This document shows positions 10,021-26,633 of a DNA stretch of 64,000 nt, piece after piece (within the stretch, counting starts at the first letter, position 1; each line of letters opens with the position of its first letter). A model generated the notes under the pieces. That model had not been told where the DNA came from. It did not search any database and worked only from the letters and a program-made list of their open reading frames with translations. Position numbers and translations under genes: made by a program. The stretch covers positions 63,984 through 127,983 of the forward strand of contig LCRO01000003.1 in assembly GCA_001004665.1 (NCBI GenBank). Reading direction: 5' to 3'. Origin of the DNA: Candidatus Adlerbacteria bacterium GW2011_GWA1_54_10. GTDB lineage: Bacteria; Patescibacteriota; Minisyncoccia; Phycocordibacterales; SBAW01.

Positions 10021-10264
10021 AAAACAGAAGGTCCAAACTAACCCTTCGACAAAGCCTCAGGGGTAATTTTATAAAACAAAATCAACAACAGATTATTGCG
10101 ACTCTCAATCCATTTCCCCTCCATAAATTGCGAAGGGTTGCCCAAAAGGGGCCGGAACATCGATCGATTAGTATTCCTCGGCTCAATGCCTTGCGGCACG
10201 TACACCTAGAACCTATCAACGTGGTCATCTCCCACGGATCTTAATGATTCCTCATCTTGAAGTT

Positions 10265-10442: not shown

Positions 10443-11160
10443 CTATCGACTCGAAACGAATCAAGTCTTCCCACATTACTGTGGGGATTGGACTATACCT
10501 TCATCCCTAAATTAGGGAGACCGACGTGTAGTCTCTACGGGGTCAGCACTCGCTTAAGGCGCTTCTTTGAGTAATTTAACTCACCGAAACGATCTATCAT
10601 TTTCATCAACTTTTTGAACTCTCGTTCAGACTTTATAGTCTGTCGATACTCGAGAATCTCAAGCATTAGCTTTATTTGCTCCCGTTTTAGAACCGAATGT
10701 GGTTCTACAGCAATTAAAAATTCTTTAATTGCATCGGTCTTGCCAATAATGTATTCGATAACTCCGTCACTGCGCTCCCGGATATACCCGGACCCCACAA
10801 GACCACATAATTTTTCGAATAGCTTTTTAGCCTTTTGCGATTGAAAAAATACCACATACGGCGCAACCTGAAATCCATACTTATAGGTAGAATTAGGTTT
10901 GAGCCGCACATAAATACTTCCGTCGCCGTCTAAAAAGCCGGCAAGATATGCTTTGGTTGTTGACGAAAGCGGTTGCATGACTTCCCTCGGTATTATCCTA
11001 CCATACGACAGGTTAGGATTCCACCGATATAGTCGGTTTCTCACTGTGGATTACTCCTCAGTGCCGCCGTGAACATTCTTAACAGTGTGGTTCCAAACGT
11101 CACCACGTTTCCTCGCGGGTTCAGACAGTTCAAATTCCAAATTTCTTTAGGACCTGAACG
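10443..11160 (-). mobile_element. Group I-type intron in 23S rRNA domain V (E. coli ~2570-2595 region) carrying a homing endonuclease ORF
   Basis: 5' exon ends ...GCTGGGTTCAGAC (rc 11161-11173); 3' exon resumes ATGCGTGAGACAGGTTGGTCTCCTATC (rc 10416-10442). Intervening ~718 nt has no 23S homology and contains the LAGLIDADG ORF. Confidence 0.7.
10535..11044 (-). CDS. LAGLIDADG homing endonuclease (single-motif, I-CreI-like)
   Basis: [20 protein letters not shown]... motif; ~150-169 aa; likely start at MQPLSS (10978). Lies inside the 23S intron. Confidence 0.85.
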
Positions 11161-13312
11161 GTCTGAACCCAGCTCGCGTATCTTTTTAAATGGCGAACAG
11201 CCATACCCTTGGGAGCTTCTCCACCCCCGGGATAAGATGAGCCGACATCGAGGTGCTCTAATGCGGATGGTCGGTTCACTATGTCCTGCTTTCGCACCTG
11301 CTCGGCATTTACGCCTTGCAGTCAAGCTCCCTTTTGCCATTACGCTATCGGCACGGTTTCCATTCGCGCCTAGGGAACCTTAATGAACTCCTCCGTTACT
11401 TTTTAGGAGGATAGCGCCCCACTAAAACTGCCCACCAGATAATGTCTCGAACGCGTTTTGCGCGTCCGGTTAGTACATACAATTTTACAGAGTGGTATTT
11501 CACTGACGAGTCCGCGGCGCCCGAAAGCACCGCCTCAACCTCTCCCACCTATGCTACGCAACAAAGCCGCATGCACAATATCAAGCTACAGTAAAGCTTC
11601 TGGGGTCTTTTCGTCTAACTGCAGGTAACCGGCATCTTCACCGGTATTGTATTTTCACCGAGCGGTACTCCGAGACAGTTCCCCAGTCGTTACACTATTC
11701 GTGCGCGTCTGAACTTACCAGACAAGGAATTTCGCTTTTCGCTTCCTGTGGGCGAAGGACCATGTCTTCTTCCGTTCTGGAAGCACGGCGTATGGTCTCT
11801 TATGTGAGCCGCGTGTTTTTTAGGACCTTCTACATATTCCTATGTAGAGAAGTAGCTTTTTGTGTAACTTTTTCGCTATTTACCCGATTCTGTAATAGTC
11901 CTAGTCCTTCCCTGCTCGATTGCTCAAGCAGAGAACCTTAGGACGATTATAGTTATCGCCGACATTCACCAGGGCTTATATAGCTCGGCCCTCCAATCTT
12001 GCGATCAAAGGACGGGCCATATTTGACCTTCTGGCATTGGTCAAGTGTCACCTCCTATACATCCCCTTACGGGTTCGCAGGAAGCTGTGTTTTTGGTAAA
12101 CAGTCGCCAGGGATACTTTCGCTGCGGCCGCGCTCGCGCGCGGCAGGCCTTATTCCGAAGGTACGGCCGATTTTTTGCCGAGTTCCTTGGAGTACTCTCA
12201 CTCGTTCGCCTTGCTCTACTCGAGCTGCACACCTGTGTCGGTTTGCGGTACGGTCGTACGACCCATATAGTTTAGAAGTTTTTCTTGGAAGCCTCTTCGC
12301 AGTGGTCCTCTCAGGCGAACCTGAAAGTGCCCCGATGCTTCGACAGCGCAAAGCGGATTTTCCTGCCTTGCAAGTCTTCGGCTACGGACGCCAATCCAAT
12401 AAGGCGCCACTGTTTATGTGCTCCGTCCCTCCATCACTGAGTCGCCGGTGTGGGAATATTAACCCACTGTCCATTACCTGCGGCTTTCGCCATCGGCTTA
12501 GGACCGACTAACCCTACTCTGATCACCGTTGAGTAGGAAACCTTGTGCTTTCGGCGTGCGGGGATCTCACCCGCATTGCGGTTACTTGTGCCTGCATTCT
12601 CACTTCGCAACGCTCCACTGCGGCTCACGCCTTCAGCTTCATCGCGGATGCGAACGCTCTCTTACCACTCGTCCTTTGATTGCTCTCAGGACGAATCCTC
12701 AGTTTCGGTACTACGTTTTAGCCCCGATTATCTTCGGCGCGAGATCTCTCGATGAGTGAGCTGTTACGCTTTCTTTCAATGATGGCTGCTTCTAAGCCAA
12801 CATCCTCATTGTCTTCGAGACTTCACCTCCTTGTGATGCACTTAACGTAGATTTTGGGACCTTAACTTGAGATCTAGGACTCTTCTCCTTTTGTACGGTG
12901 GAGCTTAGCCCCCACGTACTAACTGCCGCATAACGCAAACGGTATTCGGAGTTTGATAGGATGAGCGAGCTTTCGCCCTGTCTCATCCTTCCAGTGCTCT
13001 ACCCCCGTCTGCCAATCAATGCGACGCCAGCCCAAAAGCTGTTTCAGAGAGAACCAGCTATTACAAGGTTCGATTAGCTTTTCACTCCAACCCACAAGTC
13101 ATCCGAGAGTTTTGAACGGCTCAACGGTTCGGGCCTCCGCGCTATTCACGCTCGCTTTCGCTACACCTCCGCCCTAGCGGGCTTAAGTCTATGCGGCATA
13201 CGGTAACTCGCAGGCTCATTCTTCAATAGGCACGCCGTCGAGGCTTCGATTACTCTCGGCCTCTTCGACTCTTTGTAGACATATGGTTTCAGATCTATTT
13301 CACTCCCCTTCC

Positions 13313-13358
<46 letters not shown>

Positions 13359-14061
13359 TTTGAAAGTATGTAGCCTTACCGGTTAGTTCCGGCAAATTCA
13401 CTCAAGCCATTCGTGTCTTGAGCTACTCAAGGACATTGCAGAAGTTGCTGCAGTTTCGCCTACGGGGCCTTCACCCTCTTGGGCCGCGCTTCCCAGCGCG
13501 TTCGGCTACCGCAGCAATTTGTAACTTCTTGGCCATTCGATTTCTCTCAGGCCTATCAATGCCTTATAACCCTGAAAATTTCCCGAACCCCTCGAACTAC
13601 CAAGGAGTTTGGGAAACTTTGCAGTTTGGGCTCACATTCGCGTTCGCTCGCCGCTACTGACGAAATACCTATTGGTCTCTTTTCCTCTCGGTACTGAGAT
13701 GTTTCACTTCCCGAGGTCTGCTCCCCGCATTACTGCGGGGTACTGGAGATTTCGCTCCAGTGAGTTTCCTCATTCGGACATCTCCGGATCGAAGGTTGCT
13801 TGGCACCTCCCCGGAGCGTATCGCCGCCACGCCGCGTCCTTCATCGCCTTTCAAAGCCAAGGCATCCACCATACGCCCTTATTAGTTCCAACCTCTTTTG
13901 GGAGATTGAGAACCGCAATAATCTGTTGTTTATAAGCAGAAATGCTGCGCATTTCTGCCAATACATTTGTTACCTACCCACCTCCATAGCGCACAAAAAG
14001 ACCCACACGAAGTGCGCCGCGTGGTGGAATTTAGTTGTTAAGGTACAAGATACGCGAGAAC

Positions 14062-14087
14062 AAAAAAGCCGCTTCTCTCGAAGCGGC
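14062..14087 (-). terminator. Intrinsic terminator-like hairpin (gccgcttc-tctc-gaagcggc) with U-run on minus strand
   Basis: 8-bp perfect stem, T6 run on minus strand; lies between membrane-protein gene and 23S upstream region. Confidence 0.5.
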
Positions 14088-14214
14088 GCACGAAAACCCG
14101 CGGGGGCTACCGTTTCCGCTTCGGCGTTTTTTTGATGGTCGACATATCTATGTCTCGCATTATATACGCTACGGTCTGGAAGTCAAATGAATGTGCGAGT
14201 CCAATCGAGAACAC

Positions 14215-14254
14215 AAAAACCCTCCCCGTGCCGACCGGCACAGGGAGGGCTTTT
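14215..14254. terminator. Bidirectional intrinsic terminator (14-bp GC-rich stem flanked by A5 and T4)
   Basis: aaaaaccctccccgtgccg-acc-ggcacagggagggctttt, immediately 3' of the 14279-14965 gene. Confidence 0.65.
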
Positions 14255-14278
14255 GTGTAAGACCTGTGGACAGACCGG

Positions 14279-14965
14279 CTATTCCTTTCCTTTGATGTCG
14301 GAGCGAACGCGATCGATAAAACGCCCGGCCGCATCCTGGCCGCCGAGCCCGAAGGCAAGCCCGAAGGCTATGGACAGCGCGACCACAACGCCGGTAAATA
14401 TCGTCTGAACGAATGGCGTTACACCAAGCGTGTCGAGTGCCGCAAGAATGGCAAAGACCCAAATGGCCCAGCGCGCCATCGTGCCGGCAAATCCGGCCGA
14501 GCGCACGCCGGCCGCGCGCGCCGCGCCCGCGACAACTCCCTGCGCCACCTCTGCCACGACCGCCGCCACAACCACTATAAGCGCCGCGATAATTACGCGC
14601 GCGAGGAACGGAAGAAGCCCGAGCTGGATAAATAGCGTCACCTGCGTGAGGCTGAGCGCCTGCAGAGAAGCAAGCAGGAAGACGATTATCACAAACCACT
14701 TCACCAGCGCGCCAAGAAAGGCACCCGAGTTGAGCGAGTAGCCAGCGCGGTTAACAATTTCCTCCACGCCAGCGCTGCGCAGTGCGGCATCCACTCGGAT
14801 GGCCTTGACGGCCTCCATTACGACACGCCCGAGCAGAGAGGCTACGAACCAGCCTATTACGAATATTATTACCGCGAGAAGCAGGTTCGGGATGAAGTTG
14901 ACGACTCCCCACAGCAAGTTGTTGAAGGACTGCTGAAGGACCGTCGCCCAATTCTGCACTATCAT
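14279..14965 (-). CDS. Membrane protein with repeated hydrophobic helices (MscS-associated TM-helix-repeat type)
   Basis: 228 aa, several TM segments; repeated A/V/L-rich helices. Confidence 0.4.
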   Translation of the reverse strand: MIVQNWATVLQQSFNNLLWGVVNFIPNLLLAVIIFVIGWFVASLLGRVVMEAVKAIRVDAALRSAGVEEIVNRAGYSLNSGAFLGALVKWFVIIVFLLASLQALSLTQVTLFIQLGLLPFLARVIIAALIVVVAAVVAEVAQGVVAGAARAAGVRSAGFAGTMARWAIWVFAILAALDTLGVTPFVQTIFTGVVVALSIAFGLAFGLGGQDAAGRFIDRVRSDIKGKE

Positions 14966-15065
14966 ATGTAAATTCCAATAATTACTAAACTATTAAATAT
15001 CGACTCCCTAATTGTGGGGTTAAATCCACATATTTTCCACAACAATATCCACACCTATGTCCCGA

Positions 15066-15647
15066 CTATTTCAGGCCAATATTCAGGCGGTCGAAGACGA
15101 TCTTGTGCTGGTAATCAAGGATATCGCGCACCAGCTTGTCGTTCATGTTCAGCCGGTAAAAAAAGTCATCGCTGGAGAGGAGCGAGTAGCGCAATTCCTT
15201 GCCCAGTTCGGACTCCAGATTCTTGATGCGCGAGCGCAGCTTTTTTTCCTTGACGCGGTCGCCTACGATAAGAACATCGAGCGCGCTCTCCCACTCGCCG
15301 ACAAAAATGCCGGCGATGATAACGAGCTTGATGCCGCCCGCTTTGCGCACTCGCTCGTAGATGTCCGCGCCGCGCTCGGGAGCGTTCAGCAGCAGGCTCT
15401 GCAGAGCGGCCAAATATCCAAAATCGGAGTTCAGCAGATAGCGCGCGCCGCGGCTCCTTGAACGCGCGCGCTTTATAAGCCGCACGCTGGCGAAAAGATT
15501 TATCTCCTTGCGCGCGGTGCGCTCCGGCACCCGAGCTCTCTCCGCCGCCTCGGGCACCGTAAACTGTCTGCCGGGGTTGAACAAAAACAGGCGCAAAAGC
15601 TTGAGCCGCGCCATGCTCCCGAATAGCTTCTGCAGGGGATCGGTCAT
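15066..15647 (-). CDS. Hypothetical protein, possible N-terminal winged-helix DNA-binding domain
   Basis: 193 aa; N-terminal basic helix-turn-helix-like segment (FTVPEAAERARVPERTARKEINLF). Confidence 0.3.
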   Translation of the reverse strand: MTDPLQKLFGSMARLKLLRLFLFNPGRQFTVPEAAERARVPERTARKEINLFASVRLIKRARSRSRGARYLLNSDFGYLAALQSLLLNAPERGADIYERVRKAGGIKLVIIAGIFVGEWESALDVLIVGDRVKEKKLRSRIKNLESELGKELRYSLLSSDDFFYRLNMNDKLVRDILDYQHKIVFDRLNIGLK

Positions 15648-15765
15648 ATAAACAAGCGCATTCTAACCACAAACCGCCGTATGATGCAATCACAAAGAAA
15701 GCCCCGCTTTTTGCGGGGCCTCCTTACCAACAGTTATCTCTTAAACAGCCGGACTTTGCCAAAAG

Positions 15766-16134
15766 TTACTTAAGCTCCACCTTGCCGCCCGCGGCCTCTA
15801 CGGCCGCTTTAAGCTTGTCGGCGTCCTCTTTCTTCATCCCTTCCTTAAGCACGGACGGGACGGCATCAACCAAATCCTTAGCCTCCTTTAGCCCAAGCCC
15901 AAGTGCGTCCTTGACGGCCTTGATGACCGCGACTTTCTGCGCGCCGGCCTCCATCAAATGCACATTAAAGGCCGACTTTTCCTCCTTCGCTTCGGCACCA
16001 GCGGCCGGCGCGGCCGGCGCGACAGCGGCGGCGGAAACTCCGAACTTCTCTTCAAGAGCCTTCACCAGCTCATGCAACTCTATGACCGAGAGAGACTCCA
16101 CCTTTTCTATAATTTCATTGAGTTTTTCTGCCAT
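15766..16134 (-). CDS. rplL: 50S ribosomal protein L7/L12
   Basis: 122 aa; Ala-rich hinge and conserved C-terminal domain ...[24 protein letters not shown]... Confidence 0.95.
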
Positions 16135-16136
16135 GT

Positions 16137-16649
16137 TTATCTTTTTTTCGCCACCTCATTTAATACGACGGCGAGTTTTTGTATAGGACCGTTAATTGTA
16201 TATACGAACTGCGCCCGCAAGACATCTAGGCCCGGTATCGCGGCAATGGAGATTATGCCATCCTTGCCGACATATTTGCCTTGGAAGACACCGCCGGCGA
16301 AAGCAAGACCGCCGCTGAACTTTTTGACGAATGCCGCAAGCTCGCGCGCGGGAGCAAGCTCGTCGTCCTTGCCTGCCGAAGCTCCGGCGAAAGCCGGGCC
16401 GTATGCAAGAGCTATCTCTCCTTCAAGCGCGGGCGGCTCGCCCTGAAACTTTCCTTCAAGGCCGCGCTTCAGCAAAGATTTTTTGGCCACCGTGTATCCG
16501 ATGCCCTGCGCGCGCAGTGCCCTGCGCATCTCGGACTGCTGCGCGACAGTAAGCCCTTTAAAGTTCGCGAACACGAGCGTTTTTGCCTTGCTCGCGATGT
16601 CGCGCACTTTTTCCACTATTTCGCTTTTTTTCTGCTTTGTTATTGCCAT
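16137..16649 (-). CDS. rplJ: 50S ribosomal protein L10
   Basis: 170 aa; L10 N-domain ([11 protein letters not shown]...[23 protein letters not shown]). Confidence 0.9.
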
Positions 16650-16932
16650 ACGAACAAAAAGAAAAAGCCCATAAGGCCCGTAAGTCGACCAACTGCGCAG
16701 GAGTTCCGATGTATTAACCCCTTCTCCGCCGTCTGGCGGATCAGGGTTCCTGCGGTCTTCGCGGCCTGTACGGGAAATCTACCTTGGCGCGGCGACGTTG
16801 TCAATCGGACCCTGAAAAAGCTGCGAGCCTGCAATGTACATAACGCCGAAGGCAAGCGCGATGATCGCGACAAAGCCCATGAAAAATCTGAAAAATGTTT
16901 TGGTAAAATAACGCTCCATCATGAAAATGATA

Positions 16933-19071
16933 TCACAGCCTCCGAAGTTCATCCCACCATACCGCGTCGCCCAGGTCGGTCCTGGATACGTTGGCGTCAA
17001 GACGTATGGTGTCGATGGGAATTCCGTTTTGGATATTGTCGTTGACTTTGGTGCTAAACCACGAACAGGAAACCGGATCCGTCCGGTCCGTGAGCAGGCA
17101 AAACTCTTTAAGGCCGGCCGGTCCTTCCCTCCAGAATATCGCGTACTGGTGCCACGCGTCGTCATCGGGTATGTCGTCCAATATATGCACATACTCTCCG
17201 TTCTCAGAAGGTCCATAGCTGATGAACATGTCGGGTATCGCCGTTCTAAAACCGATGTGTCTGCGGCCGCGTATGGTAAAACCGCCCTCGAGTACCGGCG
17301 TGCCGGTCTTCGCGATTACATTAAATCCGGTTTGCGCTTTTATACAGGCATTCGAGTAACAATTTTCGGAAGTCGTTGCATATCGCGTGTTTATCTCGCT
17401 CCAGCCAAGCGAATTAAAGTTGTCGAAAGAGTCTTCGAACGGAGCGTCATGGAATTCGGTTGTCAGAGCGGGCGTAGATGTCGCTTGTGATGATGGGTCA
17501 GTCGAAGTTGCGGTCGAGGTAGCGGCGGCATCTGTTTGCGAAGTGCTTGTTGCGGTTGCCGTCTCCTGCGTGCTTGTCGCAACTTCCGGCGTACTGGTGG
17601 CGGTATCAGGAGTGCTTGTAGCCTCCTCCTCGGCAGCCACCGCGGCCTGCTCCTCCTGCGCCGGAGGAGGCGGCACGTGCAATGCGCCGCCGGTGCTGGG
17701 CGAGGATTGCGGAGGAGGTGGGGGCTCCGGCGGAGGCGGGGTCATCTCGGGAAAGGGCGTCGGATTCGGTATTGGCTCGATTGAAGTTTCTTCAACTTCC
17801 GGTGTCGCGGACGCGGGCGACTCTTCAAGAGGCGTCTGCGGCGCTTCGGACTCCTCGCCCGCGACAATGCCGGGTTCTTCGATTTTTTGAGGCGCCGTGT
17901 CTCGCGCGATTTGCGGCGGGACAGTAACAGGCGTAGGTTCCGGTTCGAGCGCGGGAGCAGTTGCGACCGAGGCGCCAAGAAGCTCGTCATATTCTTCCTG
18001 ATTCAGGCTCGAGCCGTAGAGCTTCTTAACAACCTTAAAGCTCTTGCTCGCCGTTTCTTTAAAATCCAGTTCCGCCTGGCTGACGTTCTTCGCCTTCAGT
18101 TTTCCGGCCTGCCTTTCTTTTTCCGCTTCTTTGAAAAACAGATCGATTACCCCAACCCCGCTTTCGATCGCGCGTTTTGATAACACGCGCCAGTAATCAG
18201 ATGCCACAGAGTCATTTTCATCATCAAATTTTATTTCAATTTCTTTAATAAATTCTCCGGCTTTTTTATTAATTCGTACTTCTGCACGAGCAACTTTGTG
18301 TCCGAATCTGGAATATACAAATCCATTTTTTATATCCAAACTATCCAATATAGGAGAAGAGTAATTTTTAAACAGAGTATCTTTACTCAAAAAATTTTTG
18401 TTCGTAAACTCCGCGGTAAAATCAAACGCTTCGGAAAGACCAATAAAGTTTGGGGTTTGTAGATTGTTTGGAACGGCGACTTGGCTAAATTGACCCGTAA
18501 AATTCTCGTAGGGGTCCGCGTCACCGTAGCCATTGTGGTTAAGATGCGGATCGTTGCGCACATGCGCCGGCACCGTCGCGTCCTGCAGTAAATGCAAAAT
18601 ATGCCCCAGCGTTTCTGCGGCGCGCGCTTTGTCGCCATAAACATATTCATATACGGCCCTGTCCCACGAGTAGTCGGTGGGCGAGCTAAACCATTTGTCA
18701 TTATAGCCAACATGCGTGCCAAAGCAGATAATGGTGCCCCAGCAGTTGTAATTCCCCTGCGCCTCGGTATCCCGCGCCCACTGCTTTGACGACTCGAATT
18801 CTCCTCTCCAAACAGTCAATCCACGATTATTTACCGGGTCGTAGAAGTGGTTTGTCGGGCGTGAGCCAAAATCCTCTCCCGAGCTCCCGCGAACAATTTC
18901 CCTATCGAACATCGAGACAAAAGTTCCGCTGTGCAATTGCCCGTATGCCTCAACGGTCGCCCGCGCAAGCGCCTCGTGCGTATTTGTCTCGTATGCCCAT
19001 GCAAAAAACGGGGACATAATCCCCGCTAACAAAATCAAACTTTTCAAAATCAAAGCTCGAGTATTTTCCAT
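16933..19071 (-). CDS. Secreted zinc-dependent phospholipase C-like (S1-P1 nuclease-fold) protein with Pro/Thr/Ser/Glu-rich linker and C-terminal lectin-like domain
   Basis: Signal-peptide-like N-terminus; HFYDP and LGHILHLLQDATVPAH motifs match Zn-PLC (PF00882-like) signatures; ~160-aa low-complexity linker (PPPEPPPPPQSS, TST repeats). Confidence 0.6.
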   Translation of the reverse strand: MENTRALILKSLILLAGIMSPFFAWAYETNTHEALARATVEAYGQLHSGTFVSMFDREIVRGSSGEDFGSRPTNHFYDPVNNRGLTVWRGEFESSKQWARDTEAQGNYNCWGTIICFGTHVGYNDKWFSSPTDYSWDRAVYEYVYGDKARAAETLGHILHLLQDATVPAHVRNDPHLNHNGYGDADPYENFTGQFSQVAVPNNLQTPNFIGLSEAFDFTAEFTNKNFLSKDTLFKNYSSPILDSLDIKNGFVYSRFGHKVARAEVRINKKAGEFIKEIEIKFDDENDSVASDYWRVLSKRAIESGVGVIDLFFKEAEKERQAGKLKAKNVSQAELDFKETASKSFKVVKKLYGSSLNQEEYDELLGASVATAPALEPEPTPVTVPPQIARDTAPQKIEEPGIVAGEESEAPQTPLEESPASATPEVEETSIEPIPNPTPFPEMTPPPPEPPPPPQSSPSTGGALHVPPPPAQEEQAAVAAEEEATSTPDTATSTPEVATSTQETATATSTSQTDAAATSTATSTDPSSQATSTPALTTEFHDAPFEDSFDNFNSLGWSEINTRYATTSENCYSNACIKAQTGFNVIAKTGTPVLEGGFTIRGRRHIGFRTAIPDMFISYGPSENGEYVHILDDIPDDDAWHQYAIFWREGPAGLKEFCLLTDRTDPVSCSWFSTKVNDNIQNGIPIDTIRLDANVSRTDLGDAVWWDELRRL

Positions 19072-19580
19072 TTGTTAGTAAATGGATTTTTGGTCAGGCG
19101 AACTCCAAAGGCTGTATTTTCGTTTTGAGGAAAAACTTCTATTTCATAAATACCGGACGAACCAACTCCAGATGGAGGAACTAATCTCCCATTATGATAG
19201 GCATTAATAAAGAACTGATTTGAACCTAATTTTAATTCTTTTAAATTTTCCTCTTGCTTCTCCACCACAAAATACTTCGACGCCAAAACAAAATCCTCCT
19301 TCTCCAACGCCTCTACAAACAATCGCAAAGTTTCCTCCGGCGTAGCGCCGCCGTAGGCGTCGGCGCGGTAGGCAGCTTCAAGGTTCCCGGACTCGGCTTC
19401 CATCCTCTGCCATTCCTCCCGCGCAAGAATATTTTGCATGCGCACCACGGCTTGGTCGCCAACCCACTCGAGATAATTTCTCGTAAAAATGGTCCCTATG
19501 ATAAGGACAAGAACCCCGATCCAAAACTCCCACCGCTTGAATATCAGCTTCCTCTCCCCTTCCGGCAATGAGTCATTCAT
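19050..19580 (-). CDS. Hypothetical membrane-anchored protein
   Basis: 176 aa; one N-terminal TM helix; no recognisable motifs. Confidence 0.4.
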   Translation of the reverse strand: MNDSLPEGERKLIFKRWEFWIGVLVLIIGTIFTRNYLEWVGDQAVVRMQNILAREEWQRMEAESGNLEAAYRADAYGGATPEETLRLFVEALEKEDFVLASKYFVVEKQEENLKELKLGSNQFFINAYHNGRLVPPSGVGSSGIYEIEVFPQNENTAFGVRLTKNPFTNKWKILEL

Positions 19581-19620
19581 CTACAAATTTTACCATCATA
19601 GACTTATCCACAGTTTTTCT

Positions 19621-19643
19621 TGCGAAGGTCAGACCTTCGCAAA
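19621..19643. repeat. 23-nt perfect palindrome (copy 1, overlaps transposase stop codon)
   Basis: ttgcgaaggtcagaccttcgcaa; 11-bp perfect arms. Confidence 0.9.
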
Positions 19644-20312
19644 CCGTTCTCCTGTATAAGATTTTAACAATTCTTCAAGATCATTTTGAGTCCTAAGGAA
19701 ATCTGGGGCTTGGTCAGAAGAAAGGACTGCGCCTTCCGGTCGATTACCCGAGATGTAGTCATAGAAACTTGAGTAGCGGTAAGAATGCAGGAAATTTCTC
19801 GCCGTATTTCCATCCGTTATACCTATTTTTTCCCAATCTGGAAAAACCAACGAAAGAGGATTGAGATGTACATAAGCAAATATGTAACGGAAATAGGGCT
19901 CGTCGTCTACATGTCTACTTTTAAATGCTCCTTGTGCAATAATACCGCTGTGTTTGTGGAGAATATTGAAATACATCGAGTAGCCGGTGAAAACCTTTCG
20001 GGTAAATTTTGATATCCCACACTCTTTTTTCTCGCGTAAAACTAGATGGAAGTGATTAGGCATTAAACAATATGCGAATATATCCACAAGTGATTTGTCT
20101 GGTTTTTCCTCTTTGAAAATAACCGCGGAATCAAAGCCTTCGTACTTTCTTAATGTCTCACGGACATCTACTCTACAATCGCTGTTTGATAAGTGGAGAA
20201 GCAAAAGAAAACGCTTATAATCCGAATCGGTTGTGAAAATGGATTGTTTATGGGCACCTCTATTATAGAGATGATACATTTCTCCAACTGCAAAGGGAGC
20301 ATCTTTTCTCAT
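19629..20312 (-). CDS. HUH Y1 transposase (IS200-like / REP-associated tyrosine transposase-like)
   Basis: 227 aa; HUH motif CLMPNHFHLV and downstream Tyr-containing helix (RYIFAYVHLNP) typical of Transposase_17 (PF01797-like) proteins. Confidence 0.7.
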   Translation of the reverse strand: MRKDAPFAVGEMYHLYNRGAHKQSIFTTDSDYKRFLLLLHLSNSDCRVDVRETLRKYEGFDSAVIFKEEKPDKSLVDIFAYCLMPNHFHLVLREKKECGISKFTRKVFTGYSMYFNILHKHSGIIAQGAFKSRHVDDEPYFRYIFAYVHLNPLSLVFPDWEKIGITDGNTARNFLHSYRYSSFYDYISGNRPEGAVLSSDQAPDFLRTQNDLEELLKSYTGERFAKV

Positions 20313-20315
20313 AAG

Positions 20316-20338
20316 TTGCGAAGGTCTGACCTTCGCAA
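20316..20338. repeat. 23-nt perfect palindrome (copy 2, 4 nt upstream of transposase start codon)
   Basis: ttgcgaaggtctgaccttcgcaa. Confidence 0.9.
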
Positions 20339-20370
20339 CTCCATCGTAACATTGAAGATGAACGAATCAT

Positions 20371-20393
20371 ATGCGAAGGTCTGACCTTCGCAA
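20371..20393. repeat. 23-nt palindrome (copy 3)
   Basis: atgcgaaggtctgaccttcgcaa. Confidence 0.9.
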
Positions 20394-20442
20394 GAACTGT
20401 GGATAACTTTCGATTCGCGATGTTTAGTCTTGCGATTGCCCT

Positions 20443-21004
20443 CTAGCGGGAGTTGAGGAGGTCGATCTGCTTTTGGATTTGGCCGGCGAGATCGGGGTTG
20501 CCAGCGGAAGTGGCGGCTAGTTTTGCCTTGCCGTACCACTCTACGGCCTGCGTCTTATCGCCCTTTTCCACATAGTAACCCGCGAGCGCGGTCATAAGGT
20601 CGATGCGGCCGTTGTCCGAAACTTTTTCTATACCCTCCTTCAGCACATCCGCCGCCAAAGTGCCGTCCTGCTTGTAGGAATATTTGTAGAGCTCGTGGAG
20701 TCCGGAGTAGTTCAGTGCGAATCCCGGATTCGCTTCTATCGCCTTGCGGTAATAGTTTTCCGATTGCGCATACTGCTTGAGATCGAGATGATAGGTACTG
20801 CCAAGGTTGTAATACGCCACCGGATGGCACGTTTTGCGTGAGTATCTGGCGCGCCTCTTGCGGAAAATCCGCAGGGAAATTCAGCTCCCTGTCGAGCGAC
20901 GGAGCCTTGGCCGGCCCGACGCGGAGCAACCCGCCAAACCACAAGCCCGCGGAGAATAAAACTATAACAGCGACACCGATACCAACCTTAAGTTGCGTAC
21001 TCAT
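20443..21004 (-). CDS. Membrane-anchored TPR-repeat protein, split by a frameshift near 20830-20850
   Basis: ORF 20555-21004 gives TM anchor + linker, then runs out of frame; ORF 20443-20820 (other frame) gives TPR-like repeats (AYYNLGSTYHLDLKQYAQSENYYRKAIEANP...). Confidence 0.5.
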
Positions 21005-21031
21005 GCCGAACAGTATATCGGAAGCGCCGAT

Positions 21032-22141
21032 TTATTGCATCCCGTTTACTATTGTGCGGGTCTTGGGGCCGAAGTAGCCGGCCGCCGGAGAGATATTATT
21101 AGTCTTTTGGAATTTGACGAGCGCGGCGCGAGTCAAGCCGCCGAATCTGCTTGTCTCGTTGCCGGACGAACCAGGGCCGCTCGCCGCCACCTCGTAGCCG
21201 TGAGTATTCAGGAACACCTGCAGGGCCTTGACGTCGTCGCCTGTCATTCCGATTTCCAGATCGCGAGTGAACGCTCCAAATACTACCGTCGCGCTGGGAG
21301 TGGTGGACGGTGCCGCGCTCGCGGCAGGGACCAAAACGTCGCCGTTAAGCGCCGCGCGCGTCTTGGGGCCAACGTAGCCGGTCTGCGATATGCCCATGCT
21401 CTTTTGATACGCCCGAACCGCCACGCGCGTGAGTCCGCCGAAATATCCCTTGGCAATGCCGGACGGTATCGTCAGAAATCCTTTATTCTCAAGAAATGTT
21501 TGCAGAGCCACAACGGCATCATTTTCCGCTCCGATTCCGAAATCCTCCGAAAACGCTATCCCCGCGGTTGCCGGTGCAGAAGTTTGCGTCGAAGTTTGCG
21601 TGCCTGTTTGCGTCGTCGCCGAGGTGGAAGGGGTTGTCTGCGTAGTGCTGGTGGTCGTGGTCGTAGTGCTTGTCGTAGTTTGCGTGGTTGCAATCGGACC
21701 GCCCCCGCCGCCGCCTCCACCGCCGCTGCTGCTACTGCTGCTGCCTCCGCCGCTTGGACCGGCGCTCGGACACGCGGTGGTATTTGGAGTTACGGTAACG
21801 GTTGTTGTGCCATCTACAGAAGAAATCGATGTGAGCGAGGTCCCTCCGCTCTCGCATGTCGTAGCGGCCGAGTAGCCGGAAGTGGTTGCCGTAGAAACGC
21901 CGGTCAGATATCCGTTTGCGCTCCGCGCATCAAACGAGGATGACGGCGCGACCGCGACGTTGAAACTGTTTGTATCAACTAGAAGAGACTCGACGGAAGA
22001 TGAGGCGACGGACGTGAACGAAACGCTGTTCGACGATATCGTAACGTCCGCGCCTATTGTCACGTCGTTATACGTCGCGAGCGCAACCGCCGGCAGAAGA
22101 AGCGCAATGGCTCCCAAGAGTATTCCCAGTATTTTTTTCAT
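21032..22141 (-). CDS. Secreted protein: signal peptide, Ser/Thr/Gly-rich region, two C-terminal peptidoglycan-binding (PG_binding_1-like) repeats
   Basis: MKKILGILLGAIALLLPAVALA signal; poly-Gly/Thr tract; two copies of DVKALQVFLN..GY.....GYFGPKTR.AL..FQ. Confidence 0.7.
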   Translation of the reverse strand: MKKILGILLGAIALLLPAVALATYNDVTIGADVTISSNSVSFTSVASSSVESLLVDTNSFNVAVAPSSSFDARSANGYLTGVSTATTSGYSAATTCESGGTSLTSISSVDGTTTVTVTPNTTACPSAGPSGGGSSSSSSGGGGGGGGGPIATTQTTTSTTTTTTSTTQTTPSTSATTQTGTQTSTQTSAPATAGIAFSEDFGIGAENDAVVALQTFLENKGFLTIPSGIAKGYFGGLTRVAVRAYQKSMGISQTGYVGPKTRAALNGDVLVPAASAAPSTTPSATVVFGAFTRDLEIGMTGDDVKALQVFLNTHGYEVAASGPGSSGNETSRFGGLTRAALVKFQKTNNISPAAGYFGPKTRTIVNGMQ

Positions 22142-22181
22142 ACGGTTGCCATAGTGAGCTTATAAATTAAGGACAAGCTCA

Positions 22182-22904
22182 CTATTTGCAGTCCCCAGCT
22201 TCTATGCGGAGAGTTGTGCCGTTGACGTATATTCTGGTAACTATTCCGGCGTCATTCTCAAGCTGGATACAGCCGCCCTTGGTATCGTGAGAAGACGTTA
22301 TCCAGAGCGTCGTCGTGCCGGGGCCGTCCACGATTGCCTCGGCGTGCGAGTACTGCGGCGTCGTCGAACCTACCGTAAGAAGACTCGCGACAGTTGTAGT
22401 GGCAAGCGTAGACGTTGCGGACGAGACCGAAAGTGTGGAGGTAAGTGCAACTGCCCCGTCAAAGTATGCCGCGCCGTCAACTTCCATAGCGCCCTCGACA
22501 CCGAGTTCGTCGGCGCCAACCGCGCCGATGTTGCCGAAGGTCGTGCCAGTGCCGACGCGCACCTGCGTAAAGTAGCCGGTTGCGGTAATTGAATCTGTAA
22601 CCTCATCGCCCAAAGTCGAGTTGCCGTTAACGGTAAGAGCCCCCTCCGTGGCAATAGCGCCGGTTGCGGCTGTTGTCGTTGCAAAGCCGTTGACCATGAA
22701 GTTGCCTGTCATAGAGGCGATGGTCGAAGAAGCGGTTGTTAGCGACGAGTGGCCTGAAACCGTGAGTGTGCCTGCGGTGTCTATATTAGCGTTAATGGTG
22801 GTTGCGGCGCCTACGATAGTGGCACCAAGAGCGACCGCGCCAAGGACCGAGAGTCCGACCAAAGCGGCGGAACGGGTCTTGCCGCGAATAAACGAGCTTT
22901 TCAT
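22182..22904 (-). CDS. Secreted Thr/Gly/Ala-rich hypothetical protein
   Basis: Start trimmed to MKSSFIRGKTRSAALVGLSVLGAVALGA (signal-like); low-complexity beta-rich body. Confidence 0.5.
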   Translation of the reverse strand: MKSSFIRGKTRSAALVGLSVLGAVALGATIVGAATTINANIDTAGTLTVSGHSSLTTASSTIASMTGNFMVNGFATTTAATGAIATEGALTVNGNSTLGDEVTDSITATGYFTQVRVGTGTTFGNIGAVGADELGVEGAMEVDGAAYFDGAVALTSTLSVSSATSTLATTTVASLLTVGSTTPQYSHAEAIVDGPGTTTLWITSSHDTKGGCIQLENDAGIVTRIYVNGTTLRIEAGDCK

Positions 22905-22992
22905 ATTGACATTAAAATAAAATAATAAGTGCACCAATTGAGCGCACAAAAAACGTCTTTCTATTATAGACCCAAAATAAAGGCATCCTGTG

Positions 22993-23006
22993 GAACTGTG
23001 GATAAC
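22993..23006. repeat. Third copy of the 14-nt gaactgtggataac motif (contains DnaA-box consensus TTATCCACA on minus strand)
   Basis: Identical 14-mer to 20394-20407; located ~89 nt upstream of the 22182-22904 gene start. Confidence 0.8.
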
Positions 23007-23008
23007 GC

Positions 23009-23039
23009 AAAAACCCCTCCGTCTTTCGGAGGGGTTTTT
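23009..23039. terminator. Bidirectional intrinsic terminator (aaaaacccctccg-tcttt-cggaggggttttt)
   Basis: 8-bp GC stem flanked by A5 and T5; 3' of the 23082-26633 gene. Confidence 0.7.
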
Positions 23040-23081
23040 GCTTGTGCGTTAGCCAGGAGTTCCTAGCCAGCTTGTGTTTGG

Positions 23082-26000
23082 TTACTTCGAGAGCGTCTGG
23101 CCCGAGAGACCGGCGGACGGAAGGCCGGATATGCCATAGCCGTTCGTCCAGTCAAGATTGTGAGCCGTGGACGTAGTTGTGGCGTTCGGCGACCAGATGA
23201 AGTCGTCATTCCCGCCGCCGTTGCCGTCCACCGTAGCGGCCTTGGCTGTAAGCGGACCGCCTAGATGCGGATATGCCGCATCGCCGACGAGTTTCGTCGT
23301 AAGCGAGCCACTGAATGTGCCTGTGCCGGCAGTAAGTGCAACATCGAGCACTACCTTGAAGTAGTACGTCGAGCCCGCCGGGACCTGCAGGACCGACGAG
23401 AGAACCGCGCTGTTATCGCCCGCGATTATCTGGCCGTCGGTGCCGTCGAAGACGAGACCGTCGGTGTAGCCCGATACCGCCTGGCTCATCGCCGAGTCGG
23501 TGTAGGCGTAGATGTCGAGGTTCTCTACCGACGTAGTGCCGGTAACTGCGCTGTTGGCGCTGGTAGCCACATTAACGGTGAACTTGTAGAGCCCGATACC
23601 GTTCGGATTGCCAGTGTTGCTTGCAGTGACGCTGAAGCAGTGTACCGCTTGGGCCGTGCCGGTTATGAGCGTGCCAAGGCTAGAACACGCGCCACTGCTG
23701 TACTGAGCGACGGTCGGAACATCGCGGAATATGCGGATGCCCGCGCCGTCGGTGTCAGTGGCCGACCCTTGGTTTATGGTCGTGCCCGACGCCTGGCCGA
23801 TAGAGCGAGTGCCGGTCGTGTCATTGCCGTCGTACTCGACCTCAAGCAGGAGGCCGTTGGTCGTGGTTGCCTGTCCGGTGCCGATGCCCGCAAGATCGCC
23901 TTTGACTGTGATGACCTTGTAGCCGTTGGCCGGAATGGTAACCGTGCCACAACCGGTGCAGGTGCCTATCGTCGAGGTCGCGTAGCGGCTGGTGAAGATC
24001 GCTTCGCCCACCTTTGTTGCGCCGTCCCACAGCGTTACTTTGTTGATGTTGGACGGAGTCGATGTCGAGGCGCCGTTAGCCATCTCGAGGGCCACGCGGT
24101 CGAGTTTCTGGTCCTCGTTGGTGCCGTCGAAACGGATTATGTTGAGCAATGAGTTGCTCACGCCCGCGACAGCTATTGTGTAGGACGGAGCCGATGCGTC
24201 GCGGCTGACCGTGAGCGCGCCGGAACCCGCTATCGTCATCGTGTTGCCTCCGGTCGTGATGGAAGCGGCGATAGAACTGCCGGAGCCAATGCCCGTGCCC
24301 GAGATCGTGTCGCCGTCGGTAACGCCCCATGCGAACGTGTCGGAGGCCGTAGCGCTGCCCGGAATATCACATTTGATGGCGACCGTCTTGGTTGTGCCTT
24401 TTGGCACCACAAGCGCGGTATCGAATGTGAAGGTATGCGCCGCCGTAGAGGACGGGTTGACCGAAGTGTCATTGAGCCGCTGTGAGCCGTCGTAGGCCAC
24501 GCAGTTGCTGACGTCGGTTGTCATACCGTCTGTATAGCGGAACTGCGCGCTGTTGAAGCGCACATCCTCGCCGGACTGACCGGCGTCGAAGATTATGTTC
24601 GCCGCGGTGAAGCCGATTACGCCCGCGACCACGTTTTGCGCGGCCGGAGTGCCGGATACCGATGCCGTCACGCTGCCGGTCTTGACCGTCATCGTGTTCA
24701 TCGAGAAGTTCCCCTGCGTAATGCTGATGGTGTTGCCGGTGATGGCCCCCGTGCGGCCCGACCAGCCGGACGGCGTCGTCGAGGCGCTTACCGTTTGGTT
24801 GTTGGAGACCGTCGAAGGGAGCTTGCCCTTGAGCGAGAATACGTGCCTGCCGGTTGGGAAGGTCACCGAGTCGCTGAAGGTCGCGACTTGGAGTCCGCCC
24901 GAAGCAGAAGCGTCAACCGGGCCCGCAACTATTTTGCCGTTCTCATCGACGATGCTGATGCTCGTCAAGAGCTCGGAAGCGTTGCTGTCGGCGTTCGTTC
25001 CATAAGAGATGTTGAATATCATCTGCGTCATGGTAACGCCCTCGCCCTTGAAGTCTGTCACGAAACCGCCAAGAGGCTGGTTAGCGACCTGCACGGCGAT
25101 GTTCTGCGCCGGAACTTCAGCCGCTTTGCCGATGAGGTTCACCGTCGCGGCGTTGATGGTCGTTACATAGCCAGAAGTCCACGGGGTCGAGGTCGAGTGC
25201 GACATGCCGATGCCGAATCCATAGGTCTGTCCCACGAAGTAGATGTCGGTAGACTTGTCGATGTCGAAGTCGACTGTGCGGCTTGCGGAGTTCGCGCCGA
25301 CGATGTCGCCGCGGACGTGTATGTCTATCGTATTGCCCTTGGGGATCGAGATTCCGCCTGGGAATACGCTCGTGTAGTACTTGCCGGAGCTGTCAACGGT
25401 GGTCGGGTAGACCGTGCCGTCTATGAGCGTCTGAACGTTGGCCAAGTCGGAAGGACCGACCGTGCCTACCTGGCGCCACCTTAGGCTGTGGAGCTTGAGG
25501 TCCTCCGCCGAGCCTGCGGTGAAGCGCTGGCCGGTAAAGCGGACCGCCGTATCGCCGAGGTTTTTGGTCTGGGCCGCCGCCGGGTCGAAGGCGCTCGTGG
25601 TGGTCGAGATCGTGCCTATCGAGAGCGTTTCGTTGACGGTGTGGCTGGCTCCTGTGATTGGGAGAGAGCCGGATACCGCCGCCGAGGTGTTTACTGCCAC
25701 GACCGCGAGGCTTGCGACCTCGCCCGCGTGGCTGTTGGTGTCGGCTCGGTTGCCCGCGACCGTGAAGGTTTTGGACGTGCCCCTCGGGATAACAACCGTG
25801 TCGCCGATAGTGGCTTGATGGTTGCTGTTGAGAGTGCGCGCGATGCCGACTTGCGCCCCTGTCGAGGCGTCAAGCAATACAACACCGGCGAAAATCGCAT
25901 CATTTGCAGCGCCTTGGCGTTCCACCGTGATGCTGTTTATCGTCACGTCGCCGTCATTGCCCGCGGTGAGCGTGAAGTTGGTGAACGGAATGCGGTTCGC

Positions 26001-26633
26001 GTTGTCGGGAGCAAGGCCGTTCATAGGCTGGATTGCCGCCGAGACGGAAACGCCCGTGCCCGGAGTCGGAGTCGGTGTCGGTGTGGGGCTAGGGGTCGTG
26101 CCGCAGACCGCCGCGATAGCCGCGCGAGTGATAGGGCCAACGTAGCCTGCTACAGGCGCAACGTTATTTGCCGCCTGGAACTTCATGGCCGCCGCCTTCG
26201 TAATGGGCCCGAAGTAGATGCTTTCATTTCCAGGGGAACCAGCACCAGTAACGGCGAGCTGGGTCGAAGCACTTCCGTTAAGGAAGACCTGCAAGGCCTT
26301 CACATCGGCACCGCTCGAACCTTGCTGGAGGTCCCGAGAGAGCGCGGGGCATGCGCCGGCAGAGCCGCCGGTGCCCGGAGTCGCCTGGCCTTGGAGAGCC
26401 GCGGTGACGTTAGCTATCGTTGCCGAGTCCGCACCAAACGATGCGAGCAGGGAAACGATCGACTGGATCTGCGCCTGTGTGAGCGCCGCCGCTTGCGCGG
26501 GAGCGATAGCGACCGCGCCCATAAGCGCGAGCGCGACCGCGACGCCGGTCGCGAGCGCAACCAGTCTGGTCGAACTGTTGGTAATAGTCATAACCAATAA
26601 ATAAGTCGAACAAATTAACTTACTGGTAAACAA
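23082..26633 (-). CDS. Giant (~1170 aa) secreted/surface protein: signal/TM, PG_binding_1-like domain, Pro-Thr linker, long array of beta-rich repeat domains
   Basis: N-terminal hydrophobic segment; DVKALQVFLNGS...YFGPITKAAAMKFQ PG-binding motif; TPSPTPTPTPTPG linker; repetitive Thr/Ser/Gly-rich Ig-like segments. Likely start M at ~26591. Confidence 0.65.
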   Translation of the reverse strand: MFTSKLICSTYLLVMTITNSSTRLVALATGVAVALALMGAVAIAPAQAAALTQAQIQSIVSLLASFGADSATIANVTAALQGQATPGTGGSAGACPALSRDLQQGSSGADVKALQVFLNGSASTQLAVTGAGSPGNESIYFGPITKAAAMKFQAANNVAPVAGYVGPITRAAIAAVCGTTPSPTPTPTPTPGTGVSVSAAIQPMNGLAPDNANRIPFTNFTLTAGNDGDVTINSITVERQGAANDAIFAGVVLLDASTGAQVGIARTLNSNHQATIGDTVVIPRGTSKTFTVAGNRADTNSHAGEVASLAVVAVNTSAAVSGSLPITGASHTVNETLSIGTISTTTSAFDPAAAQTKNLGDTAVRFTGQRFTAGSAEDLKLHSLRWRQVGTVGPSDLANVQTLIDGTVYPTTVDSSGKYYTSVFPGGISIPKGNTIDIHVRGDIVGANSASRTVDFDIDKSTDIYFVGQTYGFGIGMSHSTSTPWTSGYVTTINAATVNLIGKAAEVPAQNIAVQVANQPLGGFVTDFKGEGVTMTQMIFNISYGTNADSNASELLTSISIVDENGKIVAGPVDASASGGLQVATFSDSVTFPTGRHVFSLKGKLPSTVSNNQTVSASTTPSGWSGRTGAITGNTISITQGNFSMNTMTVKTGSVTASVSGTPAAQNVVAGVIGFTAANIIFDAGQSGEDVRFNSAQFRYTDGMTTDVSNCVAYDGSQRLNDTSVNPSSTAAHTFTFDTALVVPKGTTKTVAIKCDIPGSATASDTFAWGVTDGDTISGTGIGSGSSIAASITTGGNTMTIAGSGALTVSRDASAPSYTIAVAGVSNSLLNIIRFDGTNEDQKLDRVALEMANGASTSTPSNINKVTLWDGATKVGEAIFTSRYATSTIGTCTGCGTVTIPANGYKVITVKGDLAGIGTGQATTTNGLLLEVEYDGNDTTGTRSIGQASGTTINQGSATDTDGAGIRIFRDVPTVAQYSSGACSSLGTLITGTAQAVHCFSVTASNTGNPNGIGLYKFTVNVATSANSAVTGTTSVENLDIYAYTDSAMSQAVSGYTDGLVFDGTDGQIIAGDNSAVLSSVLQVPAGSTYYFKVVLDVALTAGTGTFSGSLTTKLVGDAAYPHLGGPLTAKAATVDGNGGGNDDFIWSPNATTTSTAHNLDWTNGYGISGLPSAGLSGQTLSK

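Follow-up and report, generated by a model that had tools for sequence, protein, structure and literature searches.

Can a transposase gene that lies between copies of one perfect palindrome still move, or has it settled in its host together with hairpins of its own? The question is raised by a stretch of 64,000 nucleotides (nt) from Candidatus Adlerbacteria bacterium GW2011_GWA1_54_10 (contig LCRO01000003.1; the whole stretch is called the window below), in which a gene on the minus strand, UY84_C0001G0211, encodes a protein of the Y1 HUH/tyrosine type and is bracketed by three copies of the palindrome TGCGAAGGTC[A/T]GACCTTCGCA, with no others in the 64 kb. A first reading of the bare letters (the sequence-only reading) had described a compact transposase unit resembling either the REP-associated tyrosine transposases (RAYTs; REP, repetitive extragenic palindrome) or a minimal IS200. 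The observations reported here favour the former: the gene product is probably a 'transposase' of the Y1 HUH/tyrosine type and the REP-associated class (TnpA_Y1 class 2, of the subclass-2.1 or RAYT Group-1 type) that has been domesticated, is passed on vertically and lives with cognate hairpins in a REPtron-like arrangement. The gene, its palindromes and two related sites, with lengths of proteins in amino acids (aa), are as follows.

19629..20312, minus strand: Y1 HUH/Tyr gene UY84_C0001G0211, 227 aa, contains CLMPNHFHLV
19620..19642: 3' palindrome copy, 23 nt, TTGCGAAGGTC-A-GACCTTCGCAA on the plus strand; spans the TGA stop and encodes the protein end …FAKV*
20314..20340, core 20316-20338: 5'-proximal palindrome copy, perfect stem of 13 bp, ends 3 nt before the ATG
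20371..20393, perfect core 20372-20392: 5'-distal palindrome copy
20127..20147, minus strand: codons 56-62 (K-Y-E-G-F-D-S), site of an internal palindrome copy in other loci
20366..20393, minus strand: candidate sigma-70-like promoter TTGCGA-16 nt-TATGAT, overlaps the distal palindrome, 9/12 positions

The Y1 protein and the position of its gene

The 227-residue open reading frame (ORF) with CLMPNHFHLV that had been drawn from the sequence alone is present, and its assignment to the HUH/tyrosine enzymes is borne out: the Pfam profile Y1_Tnp is just passed (23.6 bits, cut-off 23), and H87, H89 and Y147, together with N151, are invariant in alignments of 33 and of 40 relatives. All 33 of the 33 aligned relatives match the same profile. 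The motifs of the window protein are:

N86-H87-F-H89: HuH motif
Y147-V-H-L-N151-P: Y motif
residues 181-182: 'SS' tail motif

The family has the consensus PNHFHLV … FQGRFKS … YVHLNP … YSSF and a length of 222-243 aa; the FQ motif is a family trait, and the window protein has AQ at that spot. About 200 full-length clusters at 50% identity belong to it at E<=1e-30, within a surrounding Y1 superfamily of 13,814 clusters at E<=1e-3. In Table 1 of PMC6006769 (Quentin 2018), subclass 2.1 is characterised by NH[YF]H, FQ, Y[IV]HLNP, the SS tail and a median of about 238 aa, and subclass 1.1, IS200, by Y---Q and a core-only protein of ~150 aa. By motif set and length, as far as sequence can tell, the family fits subclass 2.1 / Group 1, which agrees with the earlier suggestion of a distinct, longer subfamily.

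A sequence search of the PDB with the Y1 protein gave no match, and a fold search was therefore needed. With an AlphaFold2 model built from the family alignment (pLDDT 87, pTM 0.87), the top match (E 1e-4) is E. coli TnpA-REP in complex with a REP hairpin, 4ER8, followed by the transposases of IS608, ISDra2 and IS200 (E about 1e-2). Past residue 183 the model has short helices only, and a Pfam scan of 33 family members at E<=1, made without a profile-profile test, found no DnaA_C / Bac_DnaA_C, HTH_23, HTH_28-like or other helix-turn-helix (HTH) tail.

The gene is single-copy, vertically inherited and syntenic across Parcubacteria. The exact protein occurs in one context in all 23 contigs read, no Y1 paralogue is present in the 64-kb window, and a 58%-identical orthologue in another Adlerbacteria species occupies the same slot (PG_binding … Y1 – 176/201 aa – 712/715 aa – L10 – L7/L12). 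Orthologues at 52-61% identity in other Parcubacteria lie in the order recA – ftsK – ~246 aa – ~1150 aa – (TPR) – Y1 – … – rplJ – rplL – mechanosensitive channel, and the slot (…big protein–[TPR]–Y1–…–rplJ–rplL) is kept in 8 of the 9 orthologue loci with readable neighbours; the orthologue at the locus labelled L096 has a different neighbourhood. Mean pairwise identity is 55% for Y1 and 64% for L10/L12, and the divergence of Y1 tracks that of L10/L12 (rho 0.46, P 0.014, from pairs that are not independent).

These observations bear on the minimal IS200, or compact mobile unit, of the sequence-only reading. An active IS200/IS605-type insertion sequence (IS), mobile as single-stranded DNA (ssDNA) by way of terminal hairpins, would account for the Y1 HUH fold, for hairpins near both gene ends, for the composite repeat (about 37-40 nt, inverted, with an indel of 2 nt) that the palindromes form with the repeats outside them, and for a guanine-cytosine (GC) content of the gene 5-13 points under its surroundings. 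Against such an element stand the single context and the cross-species synteny just described, with the ORF of relatives found in the same slot, the lack of a second copy in the window, the motif Y---NP in place of Y---Q, the length of 227 aa against about 150, and the absence of tnpB. The low GC is moreover found in every lineage examined (the window, L037, L085, L086, L088 and L090; in L037 it is 0.41 for the gene and 0.54 for the locus), and because it is common to all orthologues it is a property of the gene and no sign of recent arrival. On the strength of the context, the synteny, the missing second copy and the motif I rejected an active IS200/IS605 unit; this explanation is largely refuted, and the chance that it is nevertheless correct is very small.

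Hairpins in and around the gene

The sequence TGCGAAGGTCWGACCTTCGCA has exactly three matches in the window, at 19621, 20317 and 20372, and no further match with up to three mismatches was found in the 64 kb (0.00 expected from 100 shuffles). The window holds 11 strong perfect palindromes, and the one flanking the Y1 gene is the sole repeated family among them. Three palindromes of 23 nt had been noted from the sequence, and three copies there are, but the first spans 19620-19642 and not 19621-19643, the distal one is a palindrome of 21-22 nt (its first base is A, not T), and the gap between the proximal copy and the start codon is 3 nt instead of 4. The 3' copy is inverted relative to the 5' copies, as its centre base on the gene strand is T and that of both 5' copies is A. 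The proximal and distal 5' copies can pair as one long hairpin (ssDNA free energy about -27 to -29 kcal/mol, z about -7 to -8). An internal copy of the window has decayed, since the left arm ACGAAGG alone remains of it.

The window was compared with ten orthologous loci (L037, L063, L011, L085, L086, L088, L090, L092, L094 and L096). In all 11 a lineage-specific palindrome is located in the 5' untranslated region (5'UTR), often in two copies, and another at or across the stop codon; in 9 of the 11 an extra copy is found at codon 56-59, within what the model predicts to be a loop between helices 50-56 and 62-68. Within each locus all copies share one palindrome sequence, and between loci that sequence changes, as the following examples show (the dot is the centre base).

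Window, L063 and L011: GCGAAGGTC.GACCTTCGC
L037: ATCAAGGAC.GTCCTTGAT
L086: ACCAAGGTC.GACCTTGGT
L090: ATGGAGGTT.AACCTCCAT
L092: TTCAAGGAC.GTCCTTGAA
L094: TCGGAGGAC.GTCCTCCGA
L096: ACCAAGGAC.GTCCTTGGT

The changes preserve the stem. Over 35 palindrome copies and 500 shuffles, 8 of 11 stem pairs have changed on both sides in a compensatory manner, 90.9% of the cells are paired as against 72.3% in the shuffles, and the covariation score is 0.527, which none of the 500 reached, as against 0.205. When the stem register is slid, pairing falls to 28-45%. The core AGG…CCT is invariant over the loci. One-sided stem changes of the G.U type are nearly absent, which points to complementarity at the level of DNA and not to an RNA-only structure. 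Translation of the palindromes gives the hypervariable C-termini of the protein family (…FAKV, …QGQSLIVD, …KDRPL, …KYGG) as well as its variable patch Y-x-G-x-[ST]-x.

The copies of a locus also share their faults. Imperfections are identical among the copies of L088, the same is seen with a GGCC variant in L011 (a GGCC core in three copies, GGTC in one), and the asymmetric copies in L085 are exact reverse complements of one another. These common imperfections, and the reverse complements in L085, indicate that the copies arose by copying or homogenisation, and not by separate selection of each for pairing. In 6 of 10 loci (P 0.02) the 5'-proximal copy and the 3' copy have complementary centre bases. 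Where any sequence outside the stem is conserved, it is GTTATCCACAG, 3-12 nt away.

The locus L011 (CAWCTC010000001.1, a 733-kb contig, 1718-2600) holds a 41%-identical homologue in a genome of 37% GC, with essentially the palindrome of the window.

Could the palindromes be mainly expression elements, that is, operators (possibly of the Y1 protein as an autorepressor) or terminator, attenuator or start-masking messenger RNA hairpins, with the doublets described below having spread in some other way? One window copy overlaps a -35/-10-like promoter, and the proximal copy adjoins the window's start codon, whereas in L086 it takes in the start codon itself. A and T tracts flank the stem in L086, L090 and L011 in the manner of a bidirectional terminator, a solo module in the locus L076 (below) precedes another gene in the same order as at Y1, and strictly Watson-Crick perfect palindromes fit a dimer on duplex DNA. 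However, an operator or terminator leaves unexplained why copies lie at codon 56-59 and across the stop in nearly all lineages, and why in-frame doublets occur in RNase R, IscS and LigA. No T-run accompanies the copies of the window, which are not called as terminators, the near lack of G.U pairs argues against a structure purely at the RNA level, and a pure DNA-binding repressor would have no need of invariant catalytic residues. I consider expression elements an unlikely explanation of the palindromes as a whole. Promoter and terminator scans at the Y1 locus gave scores no better than those of shuffled sequence. Rfam, searched across the entire window and, with permissive settings, at the locus, placed no known RNA family on the palindromes; at the paired 5' copies only generic long-hairpin microRNA models appeared, below threshold.

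DnaA boxes beside the hairpins and palindromes elsewhere

Outside the palindromes lie the repeats that the sequence-only reading had regarded as the inverted termini of an element. The repeats at 19603-19613 and 20397-20407 are real, but they are made up of DnaA-box 9-mers and are not element-specific ends.

19603..19613, plus strand: CTTATCCACAG, exact DnaA-box 9-mer 19604-19612; 7 nt beyond the 3' palindrome, forming the composite repeat's outer arm
20397..20407, minus strand: GTTATCCACAG, exact DnaA-box 9-mer 20398-20406; 4 nt beyond the distal 5' palindrome and, on the gene strand, 94 nt upstream of the ATG
22993..23006, minus strand: third exact DnaA box, in the 14-mer GAACTGTGGATAAC (also at 20394-20407); no palindrome

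The 9-mer TTATCCACA, the consensus DnaA box, is found in exact form at 19604, 20398 and 22997 only in the 64 kb. The consensus quoted in PMC6006769 is TT[AT]TNCACA. The third box lies upstream of a promoter-like TATAAT of a 255-aa gene at 22182-22949 on the minus strand, and is probably not part of the Y1 unit. Over the loci compared, exact 9-mers, usually extended to GTTATCCACAG, are located 3-12 nt outside the palindromes: in the window and L085 they stand on either side of the gene, they are present in L090 and L011, and they adjoin the solo palindrome of L076. Beside the Y1 gene, 6 exact boxes occur in 2.1 kb (11 loci summed) as against 9 in 219 kb of background from these same loci (Poisson P about 5e-10), an enrichment of about 70-fold.

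The association is not general. An exact box beside the gene is present in 4 of the 11 loci and missing from 7, the orientation of the L011 box relative to the palindrome is flipped, and the 9-mers are about 10-fold over-represented in Parcubacteria loci altogether (19 in 244 kb, 1.9 expected), mostly in intergenic positions. For these three reasons the box appears to be an accessory, probably regulatory, and not a transposon end. Other exact boxes are located at L088 5080, L090 4962, L092 5002, L085 13498 and L037 3909, and a conserved box about 5 kb upstream of Y1, before the ~1150-aa protein, is shared by three genomes, all of which suggests that DnaA or another factor is a widespread regulator in Parcubacteria loci. 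The simplest view of the boxes flanking the Y1 gene is that they are sites for DnaA or for other regulation, through which the locus is coupled to the state of replication.

A stronger version would hold that the locus is a replication-linked site, where the Y1 protein and the box-hairpin modules serve a host function (ssDNA processing at forks, titration of DnaA, or an origin-proximal element) and the hairpins are functional, not selfish. The density of boxes in the Y1 flanks, the recurrence of the geometry box-N4-12-palindrome in the window, L085, L090 and L076, and the further conserved box upstream in three loci are in line with it, as are the DnaA_C-like HTH on some subclass 2.1 proteins (PMC6006769) and the fact that genomes of about 1 Mb keep this gene, core-like and syntenic, which implies a benefit to the host. 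Against it, besides the 7 loci that have no box, the opposite orientation in L011 and the general over-representation of the motif, a DnaA_C/HTH domain is found in 0 of 33 family members, and the sequence lacks the marks of an origin. An origin of replication was in fact rejected, as there is no cluster of >=3 boxes, no AT-rich unwinding element and no clean GC-skew switch. The window has two boxes 795 nt apart and one 2.6 kb away, the cumulative skew shows a shallow local minimum near 20 kb and falls on past 31 kb, and the genes neighbouring the Y1 locus are all co-oriented. A replication-linked site is quite improbable.

The palindrome is also found away from the Y1 gene. A scan for the 19-mer of 185,579 species genomes, a collection outside which the source genome of the window lies, gave 27 single matches, for the most part in genomes of high GC and lacking the T…A extension; I take them as chance matches or unrelated hairpins, and the two Patescibacteria matches, L016 and L018, have no adjoining Y1 homologue. 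A metagenome scan gave 43 loci. High-GC contigs hold the bare 19-mer once, without the extension; contigs resembling the candidate phyla radiation (CPR; GC 0.45-0.54) hold the extended 21-23-nt form in >=6 places where no Y1 gene is present. In three of these the palindrome forms an inverted doublet (X-AAGCTT-X', X-AGGCCT-X' and X-ACT-X'), located each time in a long ORF and translated in frame. The doublets and the solo copy are:

L100 2467-2510 (GCA_001773535.1, MEWY01000007.1): RNase R doublet …AKVRPSQACEGLTFA…
L060 8177-8220: cysteine desulfurase (IscS-like) doublet …REGLTFAGLRRSDLR…
L049 1805-1845: LigA-like ORF doublet …RRSDLRSAKVRPSQ…
L076 125-162 (Adlerbacteria GW2011_GWB1_54_7, contig Ga0076060_102): solo module of palindrome + 9 nt + TGTGGATAAC, between aspS and the downstream gene

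The hosts of the RNase R, cysteine desulfurase and AspRS (L076) copies are Adlerbacteria GW2011_GWB1_54_7, GWA1_54_10 and RIFCSPHIGHO2_01_FULL_54_23; of the three doublets, only those in RNase R and the desulfurase are assigned to the Adlerbacteria species of the window. Copies are also present in conspecific or sister metagenome-assembled genomes (MAGs), and many of those found are intragenic. In IscS and LigA the doublet peptide amounts to about 9 extra loop residues in comparison with solved homologues. The RNase R insert is missing from 118 of 120 Parcubacteria orthologues, the two carriers being the protein of Adlerbacteria and a 70%-identical relative whose doublet is a variant. Among the cluster members shown of close RNase R and IscS relatives (88-100% identical), no insertion-free allele was found, and the doublet peptide is always kept. 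The solo module in L076 has the order and spacing seen upstream of the Y1 gene, and 13 nt of it (tgtggataacttt) are the same as at the right end of the window's unit; a truncated Y1 locus was considered and rejected in favour of a solo palindrome and DnaA-box module.

Further copies in the genome, whose absence the sequence-only reading had counted among the grounds for its refutation, are therefore found, subject to the binning of the MAG: in GCA_001773535.1 the RNase R doublet lies on MEWY01000007.1 and the Y1 locus with its three palindromes on MEWY01000005.1, which is 99.96-100% identical to 13629-26178 of the window (12.7 kb compared).

Other observations concern the ribosomal RNA genes of the window. 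Within the 23S rRNA gene (11117-13892, minus strand; Rfam 1768 bits) the window has, at ~11716-11947, about 231 nt between two flanks whose distance in L085 is 33 nt. Related contigs (L061, L072, L073) carry at the same site an insertion of ~1.56 kb with a LAGLIDADG-like ORF, which resembles a CPR-type rRNA intron and holds the exact palindrome GCGAAGGTCAGACCTTCGC about 55-70 nt from its own 3' end. The rRNA genes are unlinked, as the 16S gene (338-1653, minus strand) is located about 9.5 kb from the 23S-5S pair (9910-10023 and 11117-13892, both on the minus strand) with protein-sized ORFs between them, and the 16S is short, the full model of 1533 positions being matched in 1316 nt. Just upstream of it, at 2028-2105 on the minus strand, Rfam reports suhB/mmgR (RF00519, an alphaproteobacterial small RNA; 62 bits, gathering cut-off 41), which is unexpected in a CPR genome and may be due to chance or to a structured leader of the rRNA.

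Relation to known systems and meaning

RAYTs and their REPs, known mainly from Proteobacteria and Cyanobacteria, are the textbook example of a transposase that has been domesticated and lives with its own repeats. REPtrons are RAYT/TnpA-REP genes flanked by inverted REPs, such as E. coli yafM/TnpA-REP (Nunvar 2010; Ton-Hoang 2012; Bertels & Rainey 2011). The window enzyme is like them in being a single-copy, vertically inherited Y1 HUH protein with the motif Y---NP, in having inverted hairpin-forming repeats that bracket its gene, and in its best structural match, 4ER8; its palindrome occurs elsewhere as inverted doublets, like REPINs and BIMEs. Repeats that overlap gene ends, and intragenic REPs, have been documented for REPtron-type systems (PMC3733652). 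The RAYT-like side of the sequence-only reading is thereby upheld, through the fold match and through palindromes that co-vary with the gene and recur elsewhere in the same organism. In contrast to REPtrons, the Y1 palindromes are perfect, with no bulge and no GTAG/CGTC tag, they number about ten per genome and not hundreds, many of the copies found lie within coding sequences and are translated, and one recurs across lineages at a conserved codon within the gene for the enzyme itself. The window protein also misses the NCBIfam equivalog cut-off, DnaA boxes adjoin the hairpins, which is unlike classical RAYT/REP, and the host belongs to CPR/Parcubacteria, outside the published surveys compared.

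TnpA_Y1 subclass 2.1 (Quentin, Siguier, Chandler & Fichant 2018) is equivalent to RAYT Group 1 (Bertels 2017) and to the TIRYT/TIRtrons (Di Nocera 2013). The Y1 family shares with subclass 2.1 its key motifs and length, a low intragenomic copy number, and terminal inverted repeats (TIRs) that flank the gene. The estimate of ~ten palindrome copies per genome agrees with Group 1 RAYTs, whose flanking 16-mers have about 12 occurrences per replicon (PMC5581495). However, subclass 2.1 is reported without REP-like hairpins, and hairpins are a constant feature of the Y1 family. The TIR consensus GGGGWSAS of the subclass has been noted as unlike DnaA boxes, whereas the outer repeat of the window is an exact DnaA box, and the flanks of the family show perfect hairpin palindromes with or without TTATCCACA, not GGGGWSAS TIRs. 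Nor is the DnaA_C/HTH C-terminal domain of subclass 2.1 detectable in the family, and while Group 1 has been regarded as the RAYT group most like an IS and most often transferred horizontally, the Y1 family is syntenic and core-like.

With the TnpA of IS608 and ISDra2 the enzyme has the HUH/Y1 fold in common. Recognition of subterminal ssDNA hairpins, established for IS200/IS605, may by analogy extend to the Y1 family. Unlike IS200/IS605 elements, the Y1 gene is not multicopy, does not move as a unit and has no tnpB; its product has Y---NP and not Y---Q and is about 80 aa longer, and its hairpins are perfect palindromes in inverted, not direct, orientation. The doublets recall the Rickettsia palindromic elements (RPEs) and intragenic REPs, in that they are in-frame inserts in housekeeping genes, translated as extra surface loops; RPEs measure 100-150 bp, whereas the Y1-linked insert is a ~44-50-nt doublet of the very palindrome that brackets the Y1 gene. 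RPEs have no known dedicated enzyme.

Several points weigh against a REPtron-like system. The best NCBIfam match of the window protein, REP_Tyr_transpos (NF047646), scores 32.8 bits where the cut-off is 80, and Quentin et al. (PMC6006769) report no REPs next to subclass 2.1 genes. No tetranucleotide is conserved in the flanks of the 35 copies, the GTAG/CGTC tag of known REP superfamilies being absent, and perfect palindromes would equally suit a dimeric regulator that binds double-stranded DNA. The palindrome of the window accompanies homologues at 64% (L063) and 41% (L011) identity, while a 58% orthologue has a different one, so that enzyme and hairpin do not co-diverge in a simple way. The L063 homologue was met on short unbinned contigs only. 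As no palindrome was found outside the Y1 locus in the rest of the 64-kb window, nor in about 157 kb of orthologue flanks, dispersal is sparse, at ~ten copies per genome, far under that of classical REPs and REPINs, and the placement of doublet and Y1 locus in one genome depends on MAG binning. Binding and cleavage of the hairpins by the Y1 protein are inferred, as the case for catalysis on them rests on family analogy (E. coli TnpA-REP 4ER8 and IS608 TnpA).

If the gene is nevertheless a domesticated enzyme with cognate hairpins, the following course of events could be envisaged. The Y1 enzyme would recognise the palindrome as a hairpin in ssDNA exposed at replication forks, and would cleave and rejoin the DNA beside it by means of Tyr147 and a metal site at His87/His89. 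Now and then this could seed new inverted doublets, in the manner of REPINs, and the same activity could homogenise the copies that exist. With copies of the hairpin inside and beside the gene for the enzyme, substrate and enzyme would stay in genetic linkage, and such linkage would explain the concerted change of the copies.

More tentatively, and with rather low probability, the gene may be read as a near-core, syntenic and catalytically intact HUH/Y1 enzyme that carries the hairpin in its own 5'UTR, at codon ~57 and at its stop, and that rewrites or homogenises its own sites. That all copies and the amino acids they encode change together would mean just such rewriting or homogenisation. 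The locus would then be a self-referential module kept for a host function, possibly coupled to DnaA or replication, and not a decaying relic, with occasional in-frame doublets in essential genes.

No description of a hairpin-flanked Y1 system in CPR was found in the literature searched. As a domesticated REPtron-like system, the locus would extend the RAYT-type arrangement to CPR bacteria with genomes of about 1 Mb, and to subclass 2.1 / Group 1, which has been reported as hairpin-less. As one hairpin position lies inside the coding sequence, a constraint at the level of DNA here visibly overrides the protein sequence. The annotation of CPR proteins is affected by the doublets that RNase R, cysteine desulfurase and LigA carry in frame and that are translated with them. 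With box and hairpin side by side, a link between the Y1 enzyme and the control of replication becomes testable, and the about 200 clusters of the family form a natural covariation set, which could yield the rules of hairpin recognition by Y1 enzymes and could be used to test the homogenisation of their sites.

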